A stretch of DNA of 64,000 bases, taken from Clostridia bacterium (GTDB taxonomy: Bacteria > Bacillota > Clostridia > Christensenellales > Aristaeellaceae). Positions 1 through 53,958 of this stretch are shown here, piece after piece. The notes under the pieces were generated by a model. It did no database searches. It was given only the letters and a program-made list of their open reading frames with translations, and had not been told where the DNA came from. A program made the translations under genes and the position numbers. The DNA lies in assembly GCA_017547805.1 (NCBI GenBank), contig JAFYOR010000064.1, forward strand, positions 24,578 through 88,577. The letters run 5' to 3'. How positions within the stretch are numbered: the stretch's first letter is position 1; each line of letters starts with the position of its first letter.

Positions 1-35
1 GTTTGTCAAAAAACCTCAATAGAACGCAAAATCAA

Positions 36-235
36 ATCGGTCGCGGCGGCGTGTACGGCGCGACCGCAGCGATTTTTCTGAAGGGAAATCCCATTTCCCG
101 GAAGAAAAATCGTTTCCTTGCAGATTTTACGACCGGAAGCCGTAGGCTTCAAGTAAAATCTGGTAGGGGTGGTCGTGGCGGGGGAGCTTGCTCCCCCGTC
201 CACCAGCCTGTCAAAATTCTTTTTTGACAGGCTGG
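36..235 (+). repeat. Family-1 structured repeat, copy A (five consecutive stem-loops; candidate ncRNA or structured mobile element)
   Basis: Stem-loops at 38-45/59-66, 70-79/103-112 (inner GGGAAAT/ATTTCCC), 121-130/153-162, 175-185/192-203 and 204-216/222-235. The reverse complement aligns with 30147-30341 except for one swapped hairpin cassette. The strand given is the inferred transcript strand. Confidence 0.85.
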
Positions 236-264
236 AACGCATGCTGCAGGGCATGCGTTTTTTT
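236..264 (+). terminator. Rho-independent terminator directly after Family-1 copy A
   Basis: AACGCATGC-TGCAGG-GCATGCGTT stem-loop followed by a run of 7 T. Confidence 0.7.
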
Positions 265-446
265 GTGAAAAACAACGCGGACTGTGAGCTGCATTTGCAA
301 AAAAGAAGCATGAAGAGGGGAAAATGCCGGCGGATAATGCGCGGTTCTCTACTGGCGGTAAAGAACGCGTGGAAGAAAATAAGATATACTCAATTCATCC
401 TAAGAAACAACACAAAAACCAACAGAACAAATGAGGAGGATGAACA

Positions 447-1064
447 ATGGGTGGTATGCTGAAGATGGCGATTCGCGGTTTGTGTGAGCTGGCCAGACAT
501 GAACTGCAAAAGGAGGTCGATCCCGAGAGGTTGGAAGAGATTATCATGCTTCATGCAATTGGAGCGGCGGTTTCTGCGATGGCCTCCGGCTGGATTCCCG
601 GCGCGGGCGGTGTTGTGGCGATGGGCATCGGCGTGACCTTTGTGTGTTCGATGTATATCCGGCTGGGAAATGTGCTGGGGATCACGTTCAGCAAGGGTAT
701 GATCCGCGCTGTTGCATCGGCGGTGGTTGCGGATCTGGCATCCTATGTGGCAACGCTGCTGGCGATTTCTGCGGCGGTTTCGTTCATTCCCTTTGTGGGC
801 AGCATGTCCGCTTCGACGCTGACGGCGCTTGCCAACTTCGCCTGCGTCTATCTGGCTGCGATAATCTTCATCAAGATGCTCGGCGCACTGATGCGCACCG
901 GCAAGGACGTTGGCGGCATGTCTGAAGATGAACTGATTACCGCCATCAAGCGGGAGAAAGACAACGTGGATATTGACAGAGCAATGGCCGAAGCAAAGAA
1001 GCAGTTCAAGAAAGCTGAGGCAAGCGGCGATCTGAAGAAGCCGGGCTTTACTCCGGGTGATTGA
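447..1064 (+). CDS. small membrane protein, DUF697-like glycine-rich hydrophobic core
   Basis: GAGGAGG lies 7 nt before the ATG. The 205-aa ORF has an amphipathic N-terminus, then a Gly/Ala-rich hydrophobic segment (ASGWIPGAGGVVAMGIGV...) and a charged tail. The function call is from weak motif memory only. Confidence 0.6.
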   Translation: MGGMLKMAIRGLCELARHELQKEVDPERLEEIIMLHAIGAAVSAMASGWIPGAGGVVAMGIGVTFVCSMYIRLGNVLGITFSKGMIRAVASAVVADLASYVATLLAISAAVSFIPFVGSMSASTLTALANFACVYLAAIIFIKMLGALMRTGKDVGGMSEDELITAIKREKDNVDIDRAMAEAKKQFKKAEASGDLKKPGFTPGD

Positions 1065-1140
1065 GCGCGATGTTCAGGATTTCTGTGCGCTGTATGGAGG
1101 ATTATGGTATAATCCGAATCGGAGGGAGGCGGCACAGTTT

Positions 1141-3168
1141 ATGTTCGTGAAGGAGATACTATACTGCCCGGAATGCGGAGCGGAGCTGCGCGCGGGCGAG
1201 GCGTGCGCAAAGTGCGGCGTGAACAGCCAGGGCGGCAATGCGCGACCGGCAAGGATTGAAAGCGTGTACTATTGTTCACGCTGCATGCGCAGAATTGAAG
1301 CGGACGGCGTTTGCCCGCATTGCGGTTATGACCACCGGACAGGCAGAAACGAATCGCCTGCCTTGTGTATCGGTACGCTCCTGTGCGGTCGCTACCAGCT
1401 GGGTACCGTGCTGGGGCAGGGCAGCTACGGGATCACCTATGCCGGATGGGACGAGACGCTGGAAGTCCCTGTGGCGATCAAGGAGTATTTCCCGCAGGGC
1501 ATCGCCGTGCGCGAGGAGATGATGGACGCGGTCTGCGCATCCGAGGGGCATGAGATGGAGTTTGCGGTCTGCCGGGATCGTTTTCTTCGGGAGGCGCGTG
1601 TGCTGGCGATGATGCAGGAGATGCCGGGCGTTGTCCGCGTGCAGAATCATTTTGAGGAAAACGAGACGGCGTACATCGTGATGGAATACCTGCACGGAGA
1701 GACGCTGGCGCAGTACGCCGCGTCGCATGCGATCGGTGCAAAGGAGCTGCTCGATAGGCTGCTTGACCCGGTGAACGCGCTGGATGCGCTGCACCGGCAG
1801 GGCATCCTGCACTGCGACATCAAGCCGCAAAACATCATGGTGCTTGAAGACGGCAGGATGAAGCTGATCGACTTCGGTGCGGCTGCACAGGTCGACCGGA
1901 ACGAAACGGTGCGCTTTGGTTCTCCCGGGTATGCGGCCATTGAGCAGGAGCAGACGGAAGAAGGAAAATACAGCATCGGCGCGTGGACGGATGTTTACGG
2001 TCTGTGCGCGACGATTTACGATGTGCTCTCCGGCGGAAAGATGAAGCGGGCGGCTGAACGGGTGCTGAGCGACGGACTCAAGCCGATCAGGAAGCTGTGC
2101 GGACGCCTGAAGCGCAGGCAGGCGAAGGCGATCATGGACGGCCTGGCGGTCAAGCCGGACAGGCGGATTCAGAGCATGGCCGAGCTGCGCGCCCTGCTGT
2201 ATAACATGCCGCTGCCTGAGGAGGCGAGGCGGCGCAGACGGATCCTGCGAGGTGTGACGGCGATTGCAGCGATATTCACGGCACTGACGCTGGTGCTGTC
2301 GGCTTCTTTCTTCCTCGGCTATATCCGGCCGCAGATACTAGTCTGGCCGTACGATGAGGAATATGCTGCGTTAGCCTTGAAAAACGTGCGGATAAGCTAT
2401 GACCAGCAGATGGGTGAACTGGACAGCATAGAAGAAGTCTTGAAGCAGGCGGCATCGGGAAACATTCCGAATTTTCTGGACGGCTATAAAGCCTATGCTA
2501 TCGCAAGTCGTGTTTTGCAGAGTTATGCGCAGGAAAACGAAGACTGGGCGAATCGTATCCTACAGATAATGACAGGCCTTGGTCAGGTCTTTGAATGGTC
2601 AGAACGTTCTCTGGATGAATACAGCTATCTGGAAATGATTGAGCGCAGCGGTGAACGAAATACGTTCTATGGTCAGTACATGCCGCTTCTGCGCAGGATT
2701 GTGCCGGATGAGGAACTGCGGGAAGCGTATGCCGATGAATATATTGCGCTGCTTTCCGATGTGCTGCAGTGTGATCGGCGTGCTGTGAGCAGCCTGAATG
2801 CGATGGTTGTCGGGAATTTTGTCAACATGAATCCAGCCCAACGCGTTGATTTCCTTGACGATCCGGCGTCGGTGTGGATGACGCAGAAAGATTGGGAAAC
2901 GTTGTCTTTTTATACTTATCCGGCGTCGGTGTGGATGACGCAGAAAGATCGGGAAACGTTGTCTTTTTATCCGGCAGATGGATGGCGGACGCAGTACATG
3001 AAGGATCTTCGCGCGCTGTGGAAAGCGGAGGATGCACTGAGCGCGTTTGCCGAAGCGTTCATTGCGCAGCACGGAGAAGACGGGAAGACGGATCCGGAAA
3101 GTCAGCCGGCTTTGACGCCGCTGCCCATTCCCGATGTAGCTATCCCAACTGGCATCAAGCTCTTTTGA
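1141..3168 (+). CDS. Hanks-type Ser/Thr protein kinase with N-terminal double zinc ribbon, one TM helix and an uncharacterised extracytoplasmic domain
   Basis: CPECG..CAKCG and CSRC..CPHCG zinc ribbons. Kinase motifs GQGSYG, VAIKEY, HCDIKPQN and DFG. TM helix ILRGVTAIAAIFTALTLVLSASFF. Start chosen at ATG 1141 after GGAGGGAGG; the ORF track begins at GTG 1057. Confidence 0.85.
   Translation: MFVKEILYCPECGAELRAGEACAKCGVNSQGGNARPARIESVYYCSRCMRRIEADGVCPHCGYDHRTGRNESPALCIGTLLCGRYQLGTVLGQGSYGITYAGWDETLEVPVAIKEYFPQGIAVREEMMDAVCASEGHEMEFAVCRDRFLREARVLAMMQEMPGVVRVQNHFEENETAYIVMEYLHGETLAQYAASHAIGAKELLDRLLDPVNALDALHRQGILHCDIKPQNIMVLEDGRMKLIDFGAAAQVDRNETVRFGSPGYAAIEQEQTEEGKYSIGAWTDVYGLCATIYDVLSGGKMKRAAERVLSDGLKPIRKLCGRLKRRQAKAIMDGLAVKPDRRIQSMAELRALLYNMPLPEEARRRRRILRGVTAIAAIFTALTLVLSASFFLGYIRPQILVWPYDEEYAALALKNVRISYDQQMGELDSIEEVLKQAASGNIPNFLDGYKAYAIASRVLQSYAQENEDWANRILQIMTGLGQVFEWSERSLDEYSYLEMIERSGERNTFYGQYMPLLRRIVPDEELREAYADEYIALLSDVLQCDRRAVSSLNAMVVGNFVNMNPAQRVDFLDDPASVWMTQKDWETLSFYTYPASVWMTQKDRETLSFYPADGWRTQYMKDLRALWKAEDALSAFAEAFIAQHGEDGKTDPESQPALTPLPIPDVAIPTGIKLF
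2861..2970 (+). repeat. in-frame 57-nt tandem duplication inside the kinase extracytoplasmic domain
   Basis: ATCCGGCGTCGGTGTGGATGACGCAGAAAGAT(T/C)GGGAAACGTTGTCTTTTTAT occurs twice head to tail (2861-2917, 2918-2970) with one mismatch. It encodes PASVWMTQKD(W/R)ETLSFY twice. Confidence 0.9.
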
Positions 3169-7626: not shown

Positions 7627-7650
7627 TGCTGTTTCATCATTGAAACATTG

Positions 7651-7730
7651 CTTAAAACCGCGCGAAGCGAAGAAGGGAGTCTGAGGGATGAAGTTCCTCA
7701 GGCGGGTTTGGGCGGCGGCCCAACGTATCT
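7651..7730 (+). repeat. Family-2 post-stop-codon repeat, copy 1 (core only)
   Basis: CTTAAAACCGCGCGAAGCGAAGAAGGG + hairpin CTGAGGGA-TGAAG-TTCCTCAG + hairpin TTGGGC-GGCG-GCCCAA + CG. It lies 25 nt after the uxaA stop, inside the uxa operon. Confidence 0.8.
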
Positions 7731-7814
7731 TTGATCTTACTGACGCGGAGTTTTATAGAAATAACTGTAATCCACCGCAATATGCGGTCAAGATATCAAA
7801 GGAGGATGAATCCA

Positions 7815-20092: not shown

Positions 20093-21351
20093 GAACGCAG
20101 GAATTTACCGGCAAGACGACGCAGGAAGCGATTGACGCCGGCCTCGCCGCGCTGGGCGTCACGATTGCCGATGTGCATGTCGACGTCATTCAGGAAGGCG
20201 CGAAGGGTTTGTTCGGTCTGTTTGGCAGCAAGCCGGCTTGCGTCCGCCTCACCGTCATGGAGGACGAGCAGGAAGACGATCATGGCCTGAGCGATCTGCT
20301 GGGCAGCTTCTCCCTGAGCGATCCGAACCAGAAGAAGAAGCCGCAGCCCAAGGCTGCCAAGCCGGAAGCCAAGAAGGAAGCGCCGAAGGCCGAAGCCAAG
20401 AAGGAAGCGCCCAAGGCGGAACCCAAGAAGGAAGCCCCGAAGGCGGAAGCCAAGAAGGAAGCGCCGAAGGCCGAACCCAAGAAGGAAGCGCCCAAGGCCG
20501 AGGTGAAGGCGGAAGCCGAGCAGGAAGCGCCGAAGGCCGAAGCCAAGAAGGAGCGCGCGCCCAAGCAGCCGCGCCCGGCCAAGAAGGAGCGCGCCCCCAA
20601 GGCGCCCAAGGCGGAAGCCAAGGCCGAAGAGCCGAAGGAAGAAAAGGAATACGCCCCGATGACGCCGGCCGAGCCTTTCAACCCGACCGAGCCGCCGGTG
20701 ATGCACGACGAGGCCACGCCGGCCGGCCGTGCGCAGCGTTTCCTCATGGATGTGACCGAGCGCATGAACGTGAAGGTGGACGTCTATGTGGATGATTCCA
20801 AGGAAGATAATCTCTACATTCACATGATCGGCGATACGCTGGGCATCCTCATCGGACGCCGCGGCGAAACGCTGGATGCGCTGCAGTACCTCACCAGCCT
20901 GCAGGTCAACAAGGGCCGTGACGGCTATATCCGCGTCACGCTGGATACCGAAAACTATCGCGCCAAGCGCGAGGACAGCCTGCGCCGTCTGGCGCAGCGC
21001 ATGGCCAACCGTGCGCAGAAGACCGGCCGCAAGGTCGTGCTGGAGCCGATGAATCCGTATGAGCGCCGTGTGCTGCACACCGCGCTGCAGAATCATCCGG
21101 CGGTCACGACCCATTCCGAGGGCGAGGAGCCGAACCGCCGCGTGGTCATCATGCTGGCGGGCCAGACGGAGAACAGCGCCAAGGCCGAGCGCGGCGAGCG
21201 TGCCGAGCGCGGCGAAAAGCCGTCTTCTTCCCGCCGCAGCCGCAGCCGCCGCCGTGGCCGCCGCGGTTCCAAGAAGGACGGCCAGAACGCTCCGCAGACG
21301 GAAAACGCGCAGGAGACTGTCGTTTCCGCTGAGGCCGGCAGCGAAGAATAA
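20089..21351 (+). CDS. jag: Jag/KhpB RNA-binding protein (Jag_N, KH, R3H) with expanded lysine-rich linker and basic C-terminal tail
   Basis: Jag_N start (FTGKTTQEAIDAGLAALGV), a KH-like IGRRGETLDALQYL segment and an R3H-like EPMNPYERRVLHTAL segment. ATGA overlap with yidC. Confidence 0.88.
   Translation: MRTQEFTGKTTQEAIDAGLAALGVTIADVHVDVIQEGAKGLFGLFGSKPACVRLTVMEDEQEDDHGLSDLLGSFSLSDPNQKKKPQPKAAKPEAKKEAPKAEAKKEAPKAEPKKEAPKAEAKKEAPKAEPKKEAPKAEVKAEAEQEAPKAEAKKERAPKQPRPAKKERAPKAPKAEAKAEEPKEEKEYAPMTPAEPFNPTEPPVMHDEATPAGRAQRFLMDVTERMNVKVDVYVDDSKEDNLYIHMIGDTLGILIGRRGETLDALQYLTSLQVNKGRDGYIRVTLDTENYRAKREDSLRRLAQRMANRAQKTGRKVVLEPMNPYERRVLHTALQNHPAVTTHSEGEEPNRRVVIMLAGQTENSAKAERGERAERGEKPSSSRRSRSRRRGRRGSKKDGQNAPQTENAQETVVSAEAGSEE
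20365..20499 (+). repeat. coding 27-nt tandem repeat (about 5 units, E-A/P-K-K-E-A-P-K-A) in the jag linker
   Basis: GAAGCCAAGAAGGAAGCGCCGAAGGCC-type units follow each other in frame. Degenerate K/E/A/P-rich sequence continues to about 20640. Confidence 0.85.
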
Positions 21352-29499: not shown

Positions 29500-30093
29500 A
29501 TGATTCAGACCCGCCGCGATTTTCTGAAGAACGCTGGCAAGCTCGCTGTTGCCGCTTCTGTCGCTTCTGTGATCCCGATGAGCGCCATGGCTGAAGCCCC
29601 GGCCCATCCGTATGCCTACACCAAGCTCGATCCGGACGCCACCGCGAACCTCGCGTACGAGTCCTTCTCCGCCATGGGCGGCTGCTGCATCGGCGTTGCC
29701 AACGCCCTGATCGGCCAGCTCTATCCGGAGTTCCCGGTTCAGATGTTCGGCAACGGCGCTGCCGGCTACACCGCCAACTCCCTGTGCGGCTGCATCGGCG
29801 GCGCGGCTGCTGCGTTCGGCCTGTACTGCCCCAATGCGGACTCCAAGGCCCTGCTCAAGGAGCTCATGGCCTGGTACAAGGAGAGCACCCTGCCGATGTT
29901 CGAGCGTGACGAACCGGTCGTCGCTCAGGTTGTTCCGGGCAGCGTGAACTGCGCTGACTCCGTCGGTAAGCTGTTCCAGGCGACCGACATCCGCGAGATG
30001 AGCGACCCGCGCCGCATCCATCGCTGCGCCCTGCTGACCGCTGACGTTGCCAAGAAGGCTGCGGAGCTGCTCAACGCGCACTTCGGCGTGTAA
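29500..30093 (+). CDS. Tat-signal protein of the C_GCAxxG_C_C (putative redox-active) family
   Basis: MIQTRRDFLKNAGKLAVAA is a twin-arginine signal. Cys motifs GGCCIGVANA, LCGCIGGAAAAFG, NCADSV and HRCALL. AGGAGG RBS. Confidence 0.7.
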   Translation: MIQTRRDFLKNAGKLAVAASVASVIPMSAMAEAPAHPYAYTKLDPDATANLAYESFSAMGGCCIGVANALIGQLYPEFPVQMFGNGAAGYTANSLCGCIGGAAAAFGLYCPNADSKALLKELMAWYKESTLPMFERDEPVVAQVVPGSVNCADSVGKLFQATDIREMSDPRRIHRCALLTADVAKKAAELLNAHFGV

Positions 30094-30116
30094 TTCAGTT
30101 TCGAAAAAGACATAAT

Positions 30117-30146
30117 AAAAGACGCTTCCTTTCGGAAGCGTCTTTT
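30117..30146. terminator. bidirectional terminator abutting Family-1 copy B
   Basis: AAAAGACGCTTCC-TTTC-GGAAGCGTCTTTT, with an A-run and a T-run on either side. Confidence 0.8.
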
Positions 30147-30341
30147 CAGACTGTCAAAAAAAGTTTTTGACAGTCTGGTGGACGGGGGAACCTTTCCCCC
30201 GCCACAACCACCCCCTACATTTTTCAGCCGCGCCCTATGGGCACAACTGAAAAATGCAAGGAAACGATTTTTCTACCGGGAAATGGGATTTCCCTCACGA
30301 AAAATCGCTGCGGTCGCGCCGTACGCGCCGCCGCGACCGAT
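30147..30341 (-). repeat. Family-1 structured repeat, copy B
   Basis: Same five-helix layout as 36-235 in reverse complement: 30147-30160/30164-30177, 30178-30188/30196-30205, 30218-30227/30247-30256, 30265-30273/30299-30307, 30311-30318/30332-30339. Confidence 0.85.
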
Positions 30342-30420
30342 CCCATTGGCTGCTCGATGCAGATTTGGGGGAGAAACGGAAAGGACGCTTCCGGAAGGAA
30401 ACGTCCTTTGTCTGTGAAAC

Positions 30421-31200
30421 TCAGTGGCCGCCGCGACGCTGCGCAAGAACCTCGGCAAAGGGATCGGATTGCTCTTCCTCCTCGTCGATCAGGCCGTCGG
30501 CAAGCATCATGTCGCGCAGGACGTCCATTTCGCTTTCCAGATCGATAAACCGGTACTCGTCCAGCGATTCGACCTGTTTGAGGAAGGCCTTGGCGATCAC
30601 GCCGAGCGCCTCTGAGATCTTCGTGCGCACCTCACGCGCCTTGGGCGTGTTGGCGGTCAGCTCCAGCTTGGCGCGGGCGTCGAGCAGACGCAGCGTGGTG
30701 GGCAGATAATAGCGAAGGAACGTGCGCAGCTGGGGCAGCAGCTGCGCACGCTGCTGCAGGATGGAAAGAATCTGACCGCAGCTGGTTTCAATGGAATCGA
30801 TCTGGGAGGAGAGCAGCGGATCGGGAATCAGATCGTTGGCGCGGCGGATGCGGCGCATGGCGTCGCGGCCTTCATTGAGTACGTCGTCAAGCGTCGCGTT
30901 CTCATCCAGCGGTCTGTACAGCGTTTCCTGCTCCATGGCGGTGCGTGCGGAAGCTTCGGTCTGCTGCCAGCGCATCTGGATGTCGTGCTGATCATCCTGC
31001 TGTTCCTGTGCGGCAGAGGCGGAAGCGTTGGCGGTGTTTTCGCTCCGGTATTCCTGATCCAGCTTATTGAGAACATGGAACACAAGGTACACCAGCAGCA
31101 GGCCAATGGGACCGCCGGCAAAGAGGAAGCCGAGCAGATACCATGCCCAGCGGGGCAGGTAATCGAGCGTTTTGAGCAGTTTCTGGGGATTGAATTTCAT
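30421..31200 (-). CDS. XpaC-like protein (5-bromo-4-chloroindolyl phosphate hydrolysis family), two N-terminal TM helices
   Basis: N-terminal WAWYLLGFLFAGGPIGLLLVYLVF, then a helical domain (LRYYLPTTLRLLD...). The family call is from memory of the architecture. Start taken at MKFNPQK. Confidence 0.5.
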   Translation of the reverse strand: MKFNPQKLLKTLDYLPRWAWYLLGFLFAGGPIGLLLVYLVFHVLNKLDQEYRSENTANASASAAQEQQDDQHDIQMRWQQTEASARTAMEQETLYRPLDENATLDDVLNEGRDAMRRIRRANDLIPDPLLSSQIDSIETSCGQILSILQQRAQLLPQLRTFLRYYLPTTLRLLDARAKLELTANTPKAREVRTKISEALGVIAKAFLKQVESLDEYRFIDLESEMDVLRDMMLADGLIDEEEEQSDPFAEVLAQRRGGH

Positions 31201-31338
31201 ATAGATTGGCCTTTCCGGGGCAATGCCCATCAAGATTCACGACAGATATACGTATATTATATCAAAGAGCGGGGCTGATGTCATCCGGAAAGTGCATTTC
31301 CCGGCGGAAGAACAGACAGAAAATATGCGCAACGGTCG

Positions 31339-34779: not shown

Positions 34780-34783
34780 GCTT

Positions 34784-34920
34784 CTTAATACCGCGCGAAG
34801 CGAAGAAGGGGGTTGGGGATGAAATCCCCAAGCAGGTTTGGGCGGCAGCCCAACGTATCTCTCTGGGAAATAACCAGAACCGAACAGGAGCCGAAGGCGA
34901 CGCTTTCGGTTCCGTGTTTG
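34784..34920 (+). repeat. Family-2 repeat, copy 3 (core + 3' hairpin module)
   Basis: CTTAATACCGCGCGAAGCGAAGAAGGG, TTGGGGAT-GAA-ATCCCCAA and TTTGGGC-GGCA-GCCCAA, then GAACCGAA-loop-TTCGGTTC containing GCCGAAGGC. It begins 5 nt after the rnj stop. Confidence 0.85.
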
Positions 34921-38796: not shown

Positions 38797-38808
38797 AACG
38801 CCGTGCTG

Positions 38809-38950
38809 CTTTAAACAGCGCGAAGCGAAGAAGGGAGTTTGAGGGATGAAATCCCTCAAGCGGGTTTGGGCGGCAGCCCAACGCCTCCTTATAGTCGAAG
38901 GGAAAACAGAACCGAACAGGAGCCGAAGGCGACGCTTTCGGTTCCATATT
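38809..38950 (+). repeat. Family-2 repeat, copy 4 (core + 3' hairpin module)
   Basis: CTTTAAACAGCGCGAAGCGAAGAAGGG, TTGAGGGAT-GAA-ATCCCTCAA and TTTGGGC-GGCA-GCCCAA. The 3' module is the same as in copy 3. It begins 13 nt after the mgtE stop. Confidence 0.85.
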
Positions 38951-51802: not shown

Positions 51803-53002
51803 ATGGATAAGAACATTCCGATTCTGGTGCTTCCCGGCGAGGAAAAGCCTGAGCAGACCGAAGCTGCGCCGCAGGCGCAGGCTGCCGCTGCCGTTCAGGC
51901 TGCGCCTGAAGCCCCCAAGGCCGAGGAAAAGCCGATGGAGCCGGTCGACGCGAAGGACGATTCTCTGAATATTGAGAATCTTTCCGAGCAGGAGCGTGCC
52001 GCGGTGCTTGCTTTTGTCGACCGCATCGACGTCAGCGACAGCGAGACTGTTCTCAGGTACGGCAATGCTGCTCAGCAGAAGATTTCTCAGTTCTCTGACA
52101 AGATTCTGCAGGATGTGAAGACCAAGGATACCGGCGCGATTTCCGATATGCTTGCCGACCTTGTCGCCGAGCTCAAGGGCTTTGACGTGGACGAGAGCAA
52201 GAAGGGCGGCCTGTTTGGCCTGTTCAAGAAGGCCGGCACCAACATCGCTCAGCTCAAGGCAAAGTTTGAAAAGGTCGAAGAGAACATCGTGGAGATCGTT
52301 GCGACCCTTCAGGGCCATCAGAAGCAGCTGATTTCCGACTGCCGCATGCTTGACGAGCTGTATGCGCAGAATGAGCAGTACTATCATGAACTGACGCTTT
52401 ACATCATCGCGGGTGAAATCAAGCTTCGCCGCCTTCGCGAGGAGGAGCTGCCCACGCTGCTGGCCAAGGCGCAGGAGACGGCGGATCCCGCCGACGCGCA
52501 GGCTGCCAACGACTTCGCCCAGCTCATCGACCGCTTTGAAAAGCGCATCCATGACCTCAAGCTCACCCGCATGGTGTCCATCCAGATGGGTCCGCAGATC
52601 CGCCTGATGCAGAGCAACGACAATGTGCTCGCCGAGCGCATCCAGTCCACGATCGTCAACACCATTCCGCTGTGGAAGAGCCAGATGGTCATCTCCCTTG
52701 GCATGCAGCACGCCAACGAGGCGCTCAAGGCGCAGCGCGCTGTGACCGACATGACCAACGAGCTGCTCCGCTCCAACGCCGAGCGCCTGAAGATGGGCAC
52801 CATCCAGACGGCGAAGGAAGCCGAGCGCGGCGTGGTGGATCTGGAAACCATCCGCACCGCCAACACCGCCCTCATCGATACCCTTACCGAGGTGCAGAAG
52901 ATCCAGCGCGAAGGCGCGCTTAAGCGTGCCGAGGCGTCCATTGAACTTGGCCGCCTGGAGAAGGAGCTGCGCGACAAGGTGCTCTCCATTCACAACAGCT
53001 GA
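51803..53002 (+). CDS. telA: toxic anion resistance protein TelA family
   Basis: All-helical, 399 aa, with YGNAAQQKISQFSDKILQDVKTKDTG and downstream TelA-like segments. AAGGAGA RBS. Confidence 0.8.
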   Translation: MDKNIPILVLPGEEKPEQTEAAPQAQAAAAVQAAPEAPKAEEKPMEPVDAKDDSLNIENLSEQERAAVLAFVDRIDVSDSETVLRYGNAAQQKISQFSDKILQDVKTKDTGAISDMLADLVAELKGFDVDESKKGGLFGLFKKAGTNIAQLKAKFEKVEENIVEIVATLQGHQKQLISDCRMLDELYAQNEQYYHELTLYIIAGEIKLRRLREEELPTLLAKAQETADPADAQAANDFAQLIDRFEKRIHDLKLTRMVSIQMGPQIRLMQSNDNVLAERIQSTIVNTIPLWKSQMVISLGMQHANEALKAQRAVTDMTNELLRSNAERLKMGTIQTAKEAERGVVDLETIRTANTALIDTLTEVQKIQREGALKRAEASIELGRLEKELRDKVLSIHNS

Positions 53003-53020
53003 TTATTCTGATTCCAATAA

Positions 53021-53053
53021 AAGCCGTGAAGCAGGTCTGCTCCGCGGCTTTTC
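53021..53053 (+). terminator. hairpin+T-run between telA and the Abi gene (possibly a partial terminator)
   Basis: AAGCCG-18 nt-CGGCTT with an inner GCAG/CTGC stem, followed by TTTTCTC. Confidence 0.45.
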
Positions 53054-53070
53054 TCAAATCCGGAGGCAAT

Positions 53071-53958
53071 ATGGCAAGACAGCGTACGTATGCGCCCGTG
53101 AAGCCCGCGCGCAGCTACGAAGGACAGATTGAGCGGCTCATTCAGGCGCACGGCCTGACCATCGGCGATGCCAATCGTGCCCGGGAAATCCTTTCCACCG
53201 TCAACTACTACCGTTTGACGACCTATGGCAAGCATCTGCGCAGAAGCGACGACCCGGAGCGCTTTGCCGACGGCGTGTCGCTTGATACGCTCTATGCGCT
53301 GTATCAGTTTGACATGGGGCTGCGCCATGCGATTCTGCCGGTGCTGGAATTCTTTGAAATCCAGCTGCGCGCGAAGATCGCCTACCATCTGGCGATCACC
53401 TATGGCTCGCTCGGATACACGCAGGCGGAGAATTTCCGCGGCGACCGCCAGTCTCAGGGCTGGTTCAAGGACATGCACAACAAATTCCGCACGGAGGTGC
53501 GCCGCTGCAACGATCTGGCTTTTGTCCGCCATCACAAGGACAAATACGGCGGGAAGTTCCCCGTCTGGGCGGCGGTGGAGCTGTTTTCCTTCGGCATGCT
53601 CGGTCAGCTGTTTGCCATCATGCGGGAAAGCGACCAACGGGCGGTTGCCGGGGAATACGGCATGGACGCGGCGCGGCTTTCCGCGCTGATCGGCGCGGCA
53701 ATTGACGTGCGCAATATCTGCGCGCACTATAACCGTCTGTATAATCAGGCGATCGAGGACCAGCCGCAGCTTGGCGCGGAGCAGAAGGTGTATGAAAGCG
53801 ACAGGGTGTTCCCCACGATTCTGGCGCTGCGCGCCGTCGCTGGTCGGGAGCGCATCTGGCAGGAGATGAAGCAGTCGGTCAAGCGGCTGTGCGCGGAGTT
53901 CCCGCAGGCGGATCTTTCCCTGTGCGGCTTCCCGGAGAATTGGGAAGACGTCCTGTAA
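53071..53958 (+). CDS. Abi_2 (AbiD/AbiF-like) abortive-infection family protein
   Basis: LSTVNYYRLTTY, YALYQFDMGLRHAILPVLEFFEIQLRAKIAYHLA, FPVWAAVELFSFGMLGQLF and IDVRNICAHYNRLYN match the Abi_2 pattern. Start at ATG 53071 after GGAGG. Confidence 0.8.
   Translation: MARQRTYAPVKPARSYEGQIERLIQAHGLTIGDANRAREILSTVNYYRLTTYGKHLRRSDDPERFADGVSLDTLYALYQFDMGLRHAILPVLEFFEIQLRAKIAYHLAITYGSLGYTQAENFRGDRQSQGWFKDMHNKFRTEVRRCNDLAFVRHHKDKYGGKFPVWAAVELFSFGMLGQLFAIMRESDQRAVAGEYGMDAARLSALIGAAIDVRNICAHYNRLYNQAIEDQPQLGAEQKVYESDRVFPTILALRAVAGRERIWQEMKQSVKRLCAEFPQADLSLCGFPENWEDVL

Follow-up and report, generated by a model that had tools for sequence, protein, structure and literature searches.

The window analysed here, a 64,000-nucleotide stretch of contig JAFYOR010000064.1 of a Clostridia bacterium (assembly GCA_017547805.1, positions 24,578 to 88,577), carries two related hairpin-rich sequences on opposite strands, namely copy A (36-234, minus strand) and copy B (30147-30341, plus strand). 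Copy B is placed between two convergent genes, which code for a C_GCAxxG_C_C protein (29500-30093, plus strand) and a Halogen_Hydrol-like protein (30421-31233, minus strand), and copy A adjoins the left edge of the window. A preliminary description of this DNA, made from the sequence alone, had presented the pair as a structured RNA or a structured mobile element of about 195 nucleotides. Of these alternatives it is the mobile element, and not the RNA gene, that is borne out by the terminal repeats, the target duplications, an empty site and the presence of tens of copies per genome. We conclude with good confidence that copies A and B belong to a family of non-coding, non-autonomous, hairpin-duplicating transposable elements of the miniature inverted-repeat type (MITEs) in uncultured gut Clostridia.

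Global alignment of the two cores shows 80% identity (168 of 209 columns), and each copy folds into the same five perfect hairpins, P1 to P5. The predicted minimum free energy is -96.9 kcal/mol for copy B, as against -56 +/- 4.4 in shuffled sequences (z = -9.2), and -101.8 kcal/mol for copy A (z = -8.5), with none of 200 dinucleotide shuffles being as stable as the real copies. The differences between them include compensatory changes, both in the outer stem of P3 (CATTTTTCAG/CTGAAAAATG in copy B, CAGATTTTAC/GTAAAATCTG in copy A) and in P1, where a C-G pair of copy A is an A-T pair in copy B. To this extent the preliminary description was accurate in its coordinates, its helices and its compensatory differences. 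It was also right in holding that no peptide is under constraint, as no open reading frame (ORF) is conserved between copies and the element is non-coding, and that no known RNA family is represented: a search of Rfam 15 returned no match on the window and none on full-length copies of either of the families considered below, and the best sub-threshold matches were at chance level (for example isrG, 17.8 bits against a threshold of 100). The extent given there holds for the core, and the element itself is longer. The homology between the copies continues beyond P5, to about position 30379 in copy B and to base 1 of the window in copy A, so that the full length of both elements is about 233 bp, with copy A truncated by about 2 nt at the window edge. 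The positions of two flanking hairpin copies fix the limits of copy B as 30147 and 30379, and its resulting length of 233 bp agrees with that of the full-length copy at locus L064 (234 bp). A covariance model of the family, termed R1 and built from 33 sequences, finds exactly two matches in the window, which are copy A (189 bits, E = 3e-47) and the core of copy B (147 bits, E = 2e-36), and a search of the window for sub-patterns of the element yielded none outside these two. The contigs of four other assemblies that carry the gene neighbouring copy A all break inside copy A, which is the behaviour of a dispersed repeat in assembly.

The flanks of the elements carry a distinctive signature of insertion. 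Outside both ends of an element lies the same locus-specific strong hairpin, present in full-length copies as an exact direct duplication and usually with a T-run on the right side only. Sixteen of 20 non-redundant full-length copies show such a duplication of 19-32 bp, folding at -7 to -26 kcal/mol, and individual examples measure 36 bp (L041), 31 bp (L024), 29 bp (L067) and 28 bp (L081). When the window family is taken together with the sister family described below, there are 36 elements whose ends are abutted by a confirmed duplication, which measures 19-37 bp (median 29), whereas the same duplication criterion is satisfied at 3 of 4000 random positions of the same loci. A few copies at non-palindromic sites have duplications of 4-5 bp instead (CGTA in L095, GTCAT in L042, TGGC in L060). 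At copy B the two flanks, 30117-30146 (AAAAGACGCTTCCTTTCGGAAGCGTCTTTT) and 30380-30409, are identical at 23 of 30 bases without gaps, and four of the seven mismatches fall in the loop. Strains with a C_GCAxxG protein 90-93% identical to that of the window have the same gene order and no element recognizable by R1 at the copy B site. Two of these loci, L123 and L124, have one hairpin only, AAAAGGACGCTTCCGTCAGGAAGCGTCCTTTTTT, after the stop codon, and the window carries that hairpin on either side of copy B. The intergenic remainder in the element-free strains is different, with other small repeats there, and it differs between the strains too; hence the comparison of these sequences appears supportive, though it does not amount to a perfectly clean excision footprint. 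On the whole, the duplications show that the elements insert at the base of a DNA palindrome that was already present, in most cases an intrinsic terminator stem-loop, and that the whole stem-loop is duplicated, with the consequence that both neighbouring genes keep a terminator hairpin.

In the regions orthologous to window positions 30094-30420 (L123:3140-3335 and L124:3140-3527), two or four tandem units of about 96 nt stand in place of the element. Each unit (GAAAATTGYGTGAWAAC...GACGAAGCGTGCAGACC.GGGCGGATGTGG...CTGCCCGCTTTT) is closed by a terminator-like hairpin, and the copy number of the unit varies between samples with an identical flanking protein.

A search of one-genome-per-species contigs for exact matches to 18 nt of the inner P4 hairpin recovered more than 109 loci, about 70 of them true relatives and the remainder chance matches in coding sequence. 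More than 30 of the pattern matches come from a single Clostridia metagenome-assembled genome (MAG) from the Hadza gut, CAKUKM01, many of them at contig ends. Further copies occur in MAGs from sheep, goat, chicken and rumen, among them those of Candidatus Faecivicinus and Candidatus Fimadaptatus, both of which are classified by the NCBI taxonomy in Clostridia, Eubacteriales incertae sedis; several copies were counted in MAGs other than CAKUKM01. The model R1, run on 543 kb of retrieved loci, identified about 78 strong copies, nine of which had not been picked by the P4 pattern. Outside these genomes, one diverged copy is present in an IMG/VR contig, metagenomes scanned for a 25-mer peculiar to the two window copies and viral contigs scanned for P1 each gave no match, and the plasmid and phage collections, searched by BLASTN with both families, yielded only one unannotated 70% match.

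The family's full-length copies, about 235-340 bp in size, open with CAGNNTGTCAAAAA and close with TTTTTGACAGTCTG. A spacer of 1-7 nt separates the left end, CAGCTTGTCAAAAA, from an inverted copy of itself, with which it forms the hairpin P1, and the right end has the form TTTTT(C)GACAGTCTG. In the consensus of 36 elements the terminal inverted repeats are CAGCTTGTCAAAAA at the left and, as the reverse complement of the right end, CAGACTGTC(G)AAAAA. The interior consists of 4 to 10 short perfect hairpins, comprising P2 to P5, in many copies P6 as well, and additional modules that come and go between copies. Variants of P3, P4 and P5 are combined in mosaic fashion within one genome, and the P3 type of copy B is present also in locus L001. 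Three unpaired motifs are conserved in the family, namely CCACCCC, GCAAGG and the loop of P5, the last being retained even in a distant relative (L110:4019-4210).

The P1 palindrome opens not only the full-length copies of the window family but also those of a second family with another interior. A scan of metagenome contigs for this palindrome gave at least 120 loci, and among the matches listed 108 of 120 have P1 followed by a different hairpin-rich interior (GTGCGGTTTTTCAGAACTTAAAAAGTTCTGAAAAACC...GAAAGACACCCCTGATGGGTTTCTTTC...) and not by P2. Members of this sister family, which come from human-gut metagenomes, are about 165 bp long and have the same right repeat, GAGTTTTTCGACAGTCTC. They likewise have hairpin duplications, of 33 bp in L135, 36 bp in L146 and 29 bp in L168, and L152 has a 10-bp non-hairpin duplication. 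In both families together the lengths of elements with confirmed duplications are concentrated at 160-180, 220-280 and 320-360 bp, without any above 450 bp. The combination of the same ends with different interiors implies that the ends constitute the transposition module and that the interior is interchangeable; the superfamily is therefore defined by its ends and by the duplication of a whole target hairpin. Sites of the sister family include L135:9228-9390, L146, L152, L168 and about 100 further loci (L126-L245), and solo P1 palindromes lie between terminators in L154, L160 and L225.

Departures from the full-length form were seen at several loci. L061, L077, L106 and L110, from four MAGs, have copies that lack P1 and the right terminal repeat and are flanked by the same two genes, which, judged by sequence ends only, resemble subunits of an oxaloacetate-decarboxylase-type enzyme. 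P3 and P5 show compensated differences among these copies, which could represent an old insertion that was retained or one exapted for host function. In L026 (2385-2640) the left target hairpin (AGCGGCGGGGGAAGG...) is similar to P2, and P1 together with the 5' arm of P2 is apparently deleted. This deletion appears to have arisen by recombination between the target hairpin and P2, which would be one route from a full-length to a P1-less copy.

The features of the two window copies are collected in Table 1. The hairpin to the right of copy B would act as terminator of the convergent gene 30421-31233. The hairpin at 236-266 is presumably one half of the target duplication of copy A, with its partner beyond base 1 of the window, by analogy with copy B and with the 36 copies for which the duplication is confirmed.

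Table 1. Coordinates of copies A and B and of their flanking hairpins in the window
Feature	Position	Strand	Observation
Left copy of duplicated host terminator hairpin, AAAA-GACGCTTCC-TTTC-GGAAGCGTC-TTTT	30117..30146	+	Terminator-like in scan; abuts left end of element
Complete element, copy B: P1, P2, linker, P3, P4, P5 and decayed right end	30147..30379	+	233 bp; bounded by the flanking hairpins
P1: left terminal inverted repeat CAGACTGTCAAAAA (30147-30160) and adjoining inverted copy (30164-30177)	30147..30177	+	
P2 hairpin, GTGGACGGGGGAA-CCT-TTCCCCCGCCAC	30178..30205	+	Helix 1, 97% paired in 33 and in 69 copies
Unpaired linker, AACCACCCCCTA	30206..30217	+	Motif CCACCCC near-invariant across the family (alignment)
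P3 hairpin: subfamily-specific outer stem and apical hairpin	30218..30256	+	8 of 10 outer pairs changed on both sides across the family
P4 hairpin with inner hairpin GGGAAAT-GGG-ATTTCCC (30278-30294)	30265..30307	+	Outer stem covaries
P5 hairpin with conserved loop CCGTACRCGCCGC	30311..30339	+	6 of 9 pairs changed on both sides
Right end of copy B, homologous to right end of copy A	30340..30379	+	Global alignment of A and B; comparison with L064 and L008
Right copy of duplicated host hairpin, AAAGGACGCTTCCGGAAGGAAACGTCCTTT	30380..30409	+	Follows closely on the converging gene 30421-31233 (-), 3' of its stop codon
Element copy A: P1 (204-234), P2-P5 core (35-203), right-end repeat remnant GGTTTTTTGACAAAC (1-15)	1..234	-	
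Host hairpin AACGCATGC-TGCAGG-GCATGCGTT with T-run	236..266	.	Abuts P1 end of copy A; read from the sequence

The elements show a marked preference of orientation relative to the adjoining genes. The upstream gene is co-directional with the element in 43 of 47 informative copies when gene orientation is called by an amino-acid-composition score, and in 40 of 46 when a greedy gene call made independently is used, both calls being heuristic. Twelve loci have most of their other genes opposed to the element, and in nine of these the element still follows the upstream gene; this is weak evidence that the terminator or gene polarity, rather than the direction of replication, sets the orientation. 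In about 12 of 16 copies the hairpin on the right is followed by a T-run, and that on the left runs into the element without one. Given the missing T-run at the left hairpin and the sense orientation of 87-91% of copies, transcripts of the upstream gene are expected to read through into the element and to terminate at the right hairpin, such that the element would form a structured extension of the 3' untranslated region (UTR). Copy A looks like a minority case in this respect: the T-run of its flanking hairpin is on the plus strand of the window, and the hairpin would terminate plus-strand transcription that crosses the element in antisense. Promoter scans found no promoter-like site within or before copy B and only two weak 9-of-12 matches in copy A.

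Pairing across the family was assessed on two sets of sequences, namely 33 copies aligned with MAFFT and folded with RNAalifold, with 500 shuffles and slid partners as controls, and 69 copies aligned to the covariance model, an alignment that leans towards the model; in both sets the copies are related by descent and the counts are not independent events. The 33 copies recover P2-P5 with 46 base pairs, of which 22 are changed on both sides, and 97.2% of cells are paired, as against 86.8% in shuffles and 40-52% with slid partners. They contain 146 double-change cells compared with 32.5 in shuffles, none of the 500 shuffles being as high, and one-sided changes in just 4 cells. With 69 copies, 96.2% of cells are paired and double changes are found in 36 of the 46 pairs (360 cells). 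The inner P4 hairpin was invariant in the first alignment, which is an artefact of searching with that pattern and was not used as evidence; it covaries in copies outside the pattern selection, such as L065 with GGAAAAT/ATTTTCC. The proposal in the preliminary description that pairing is conserved through compensatory changes thus holds, with statistical confirmation on both sets.

Its further proposal, that the constraint acts on an RNA, is not supported. The stem cells comprise 2886 Watson-Crick pairs, 37 G.T and 45 A.C combinations, and as G.T is no commoner than A.C neither strand is favored and there is no strand-specific tolerance of wobble pairing. Private substitutions amount to 0.42 for each paired and 0.50 for each unpaired column, and an evident promoter was not detected at either copy. 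Changes that are confined to Watson-Crick pairs and symmetric between strands, taken together with equal private mutation of stems and loops, point to a constraint on propagating lineages or to palindrome correction and not to an RNA maintained copy by copy. The covariation therefore separates subfamilies, that is to say propagating lineages, and does not reflect the upkeep of resident copies; correction of palindromes by template switching would also yield such clean double changes. The sole strand-specific RNA signal found is the distribution of UNCG tetraloops, with 24 on the sense strand and none on the antisense strand. These 24 loops trace to only four or five distinct hairpins, so that they are not independent events and the counts are inflated by shared descent, and they could equally derive from captured terminator stem-loops.

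The elements share with MITEs a length below about 600 bp (here 160-360 bp), lack of coding capacity, terminal repeats, target duplication with an empty site, and dispersed copies; the remaining attribute of MITEs, a related autonomous element with a transposase recognizing the same ends, was not found. In the window, Pfam searches with ten ORFs selected from its 42 called genes revealed neither an autonomous element nor a transposase with these ends, and none was detected in about 1.5 Mb of retrieved loci or in plasmid or phage collections. Beside the copies in the retrieved loci there is no recurrent protein, including no gene for a Y1 transposase, RAYT, TnpB or IscB; no lone terminal repeat in these loci is part of a larger unit, and no hairpin-forming direct repeats 0.45-4 kb apart bracket a candidate. 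Inverted end pairs 0.7-3.5 kb apart gave a sole candidate, L196, which was rejected as two small elements flanking an ordinary gene. The missing transposase is weak evidence, since MAGs and short contigs often lose insertion sequences (IS). Beyond it, several observations sit uneasily with the identification of these sequences as transposable elements. The right terminal repeat of copy B has decayed beyond recognition (..TTTGGGGGAGAAACGG against ..TTTTTGACAGTCTG in the family), and the second flank of copy A lies outside the window. Many copies are without P1 and the right repeat and begin at P2 just after a stop codon, and the sharing of one gene junction by some of these in four species (L061, L077, L106 and L110) could mean retention for host function. 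Moreover, a transposon moving by cut-and-paste as double-stranded DNA has no obvious need of a covarying hairpin interior, and symmetric attack on a symmetric hairpin gives no obvious reason for a strong orientation bias.

These difficulties have to be considered alongside the merits of other explanations. The leading idea of the preliminary description, a free-standing structured non-coding RNA gene or cis-regulatory RNA whose helices are selected at each locus, would account for the double changes far above controls, the conserved unpaired motifs CCACCCC, GCAAGG and the P5 loop, the strong sense preference relative to the upstream gene, the sense-only UNCG loops, and the retention of some copies at one junction in four species. 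However, terminal repeats, target duplications, insertion polymorphism and contig breaks speak against an RNA gene, as do the near-purely Watson-Crick stems with their private substitutions, the scarcity of promoter-like sites, the wholesale swap of the interior in a sister family with the same ends, and the origin of the UNCG loops in about 4-5 distinct hairpins, and we regard it as very unlikely. We give hardly any credence to REP/BIME-like or IS200/IS605-derived palindromes being moved as single-stranded DNA by a Y1/HUH transposase (RAYT, TnpA). Their perfect strand-symmetric hairpin array, the shuffling of modules between copies, the location outside genes at 3' ends and an orientation bias typical of elements that target single-stranded DNA are matched by the present elements, but most full-length copies have the terminal repeats and target duplication that such elements lack, a conserved tetranucleotide target is missing, none of the copies was seen to have a Y1 transposase gene nearby, and the tendency of orientation to follow the adjacent gene in 9 of 12 opposed loci is weak evidence against a replication-strand rule. 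The possibility raised earlier of a link to the ends of IS200/IS605, TnpB or IscB elements is likewise not supported, in view of the terminal repeats and duplications and the lack of any such gene near the copies.

Exaptation of a mobile element as a 3' UTR or intra-operon RNA stabilizer or processing site, like REP/BIME in E. coli and Correia in Neisseria, is unlikely; it would explain both the hairpin array and the orientation bias. It agrees with the expected read-through past a left hairpin devoid of a T-run, with the sense orientation of 87-91% of copies and the sense-only UNCG loops, and with the occurrence of 15 P1-less copies between co-directional genes (+,+), including the orthologous junction in four species. 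Against it, no excess of purifying selection on pairing is detectable in individual copies, and the close strains examined are without copy B, the intergenic region that replaces it being different between them. It is possible, if rather tentative, that the compensatory changes arose without selection, through palindromes being kept perfect by template switching (quasi-palindrome correction) or gene conversion. A process of this kind turns a single arm mutation into a double change, as in the 4 one-sided against 146 two-sided cells of the 33 sequences, and it is in keeping with G.T being about as common as A.C, with an equal density of private mutations in stems and loops, and with the mosaic assortment of modules between copies of one genome. 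It leaves unexplained the hairpin array itself, the conserved loop and linker motifs, and the sense-only UNCG loops; it is nonetheless compatible with the MITE explanation, to which it adds without replacing it. A bolder proposal is that the shared ends (the P1 palindrome and TTTTTGACAGTCTG) mark a widespread superfamily of hairpin-array elements in gut Clostridia moved by a new structure-specific integration machinery, which would recognize the base of an extruded terminator hairpin or cruciform and no particular sequence, insert with a polarity fixed by the direction of transcription and copy the whole hairpin, the covarying interior being needed for a single-stranded DNA or RNA stage, and that the elements are not mere deletion derivatives of IS30- or IS1182-like elements; this we consider doubtful. 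Hairpin-duplicating MITEs accordingly remain the preferred explanation. In their movement a transposase supplied in trans would link the two ends of the element to opposite strands at the two flanks of the hairpin. The joints might be staggered by a short distance at the foot of an extruded cruciform, after which the hairpin would be copied by repair synthesis. The pairing of the internal hairpins may serve transposition competence or provide a compact RNA or DNA fold at low cost, or it may reflect palindrome correction by template switching.

A number of other repeats and genes were noted in passing. An unrelated dispersed repeat of about 85 nt, CTTAAAACCGCGCGAAGCGAAGAAGGGAGTTTGAGGGATGAAGTCCCTCAGGCGGGTTTGGGCGGCAGCCCAACG, with two short hairpins, occurs at 7647-7732, 10719-~10830, 34780-34860 and 38805-38890 of the window, all on the plus strand, and one of these four copies has an internal insertion. 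The MAG JAFQKN01, from goat caecum, contains an intergenic multi-copy repeat, GCTTTACAGGAAATTCCTCCTGCAAAGCAAAAAAGATTTTATGTCCCGCCGAA-CGGGAAATGGGATTTCCC-TTAGGCG..., which has only the inner P4 hairpin in common with the family (L002, L027, L037, L053, L054, L066, L078, L085, L101 and L109); it follows terminator T-runs, is sometimes in tandem, and shows no apparent hairpin duplication in the copies inspected. Within the Ser/Thr kinase gene at 1057-3168 (plus strand) of the window, positions 2861-2970 hold a direct tandem duplication of 57 nt, 98% identical and coding for PASVWMTQKD(W/R)ETLSFY. The kinase has 703 amino acids in the window and 675 and 656 in other assemblies of the same organism, and the 19-residue step between the latter two suggests that the repeat copy number varies. 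A tandem array of 27-nt (9-codon) units at 20332-20650 (plus strand) encodes a low-complexity, Lys/Pro/Ala/Glu-rich segment (KKEAPKAEA-like) in a coding region, and an Abi_2 (abortive-infection-like) protein, unrelated to the element, is encoded at 52945-53958 (plus strand; Pfam E = 1e-45).

Taken as MITEs, these sequences turn from an apparent new RNA into a testable mobile-DNA system, in which terminator hairpins are used as safe landing sites and the hairpin is regenerated on each side. Hairpin-duplicating behaviour, earlier reported mainly for one mycoplasma IS, is thereby extended to uncultured gut Clostridia, where two families with unrelated interiors share their ends. There are also practical consequences: the repeats break metagenome assemblies, copy A being at contig ends in every assembly examined, and they could pass for non-coding RNA genes in covariation screens. 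As expected from the sequence, they would lengthen many 3' UTRs by some 230-340 nt with a high degree of structure. A transposase for these ends, if found, would represent a structure-directed, sequence-independent integrase that spares neighbouring genes, and as such would be of mechanistic and possibly practical interest.

Comparable systems fall into several groups. Compensatory changes have been reported for bcr1, one of the bacterial MITEs. These small non-coding intergenic repeats, which include Correia/NEMIS of Neisseria, BOX, RUP and SPRITE of S. pneumoniae, bcr1 of the Bacillus cereus group, and ERIC, are multi-copy, are co-transcribed and fold as RNA, and have terminal repeats and stable predicted folds, with BOX being modular and SPRITE terminator-like (PMC10969869). 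Unlike the elements described here, these MITEs have short target duplications (e.g. TA, TTTAT) and duplicate no whole host terminator, and they have not been reported from these Clostridia; no MITE that duplicates a terminator is mentioned in a review of the prokaryotic members from 2024 (PMC10969869). REP/BIME with RAYT resemble the elements in forming mosaic arrays of perfect palindromic units at gene 3' ends, which can stabilize the upstream mRNA, but they have neither the terminal inverted repeats nor the target duplications seen here and need a Y1 transposase. As for the targeting of hairpins, nothing was found in the IS4/IS1634 literature, whereas IS1272/TnSha1 of staphylococci (IS1182 family) inserts into hairpins, mostly confirmed terminators, without primary-sequence specificity, and other members of that family also target palindromes (PMC4923244). 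Insertion of IS1272 deletes part of the hairpin and involves no target duplication and no orientation bias (PMC4923244), whereas the elements of the Clostridia, which have hairpin targeting in common with it, duplicate an intact hairpin and are strongly oriented. IS1630 of Mycoplasma fermentans (IS30 family) duplicates inverted repeats of variable sequence, for which lengths of 19-26 bp are given, with target duplications of 16-26 bp (PMC2853133; PMC3317919, citing Calcutt et al. 1999). Both IS1630 and the present elements thus insert at inverted repeats and give long, variable target duplications. IS1630 is, however, an autonomous IS of 1.4 kb with 27-bp terminal repeats and its own transposase, whereas the elements are non-coding, 165-340 bp in length, and have terminal repeats of about 14 bp, the left one being doubled back to back, duplications of up to 37 bp and a strong orientation bias. 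The target repeats of IS1630 are said to have been described as terminator-derived by Calcutt in 1999. The likeness to IS1630 and IS30 is one of behaviour, namely inverted-repeat duplication, as taken from published descriptions. On the whole, IS1630 and IS1272 show that DDE transposases are able to target hairpins, and they are the closest precedents for the elements described here.

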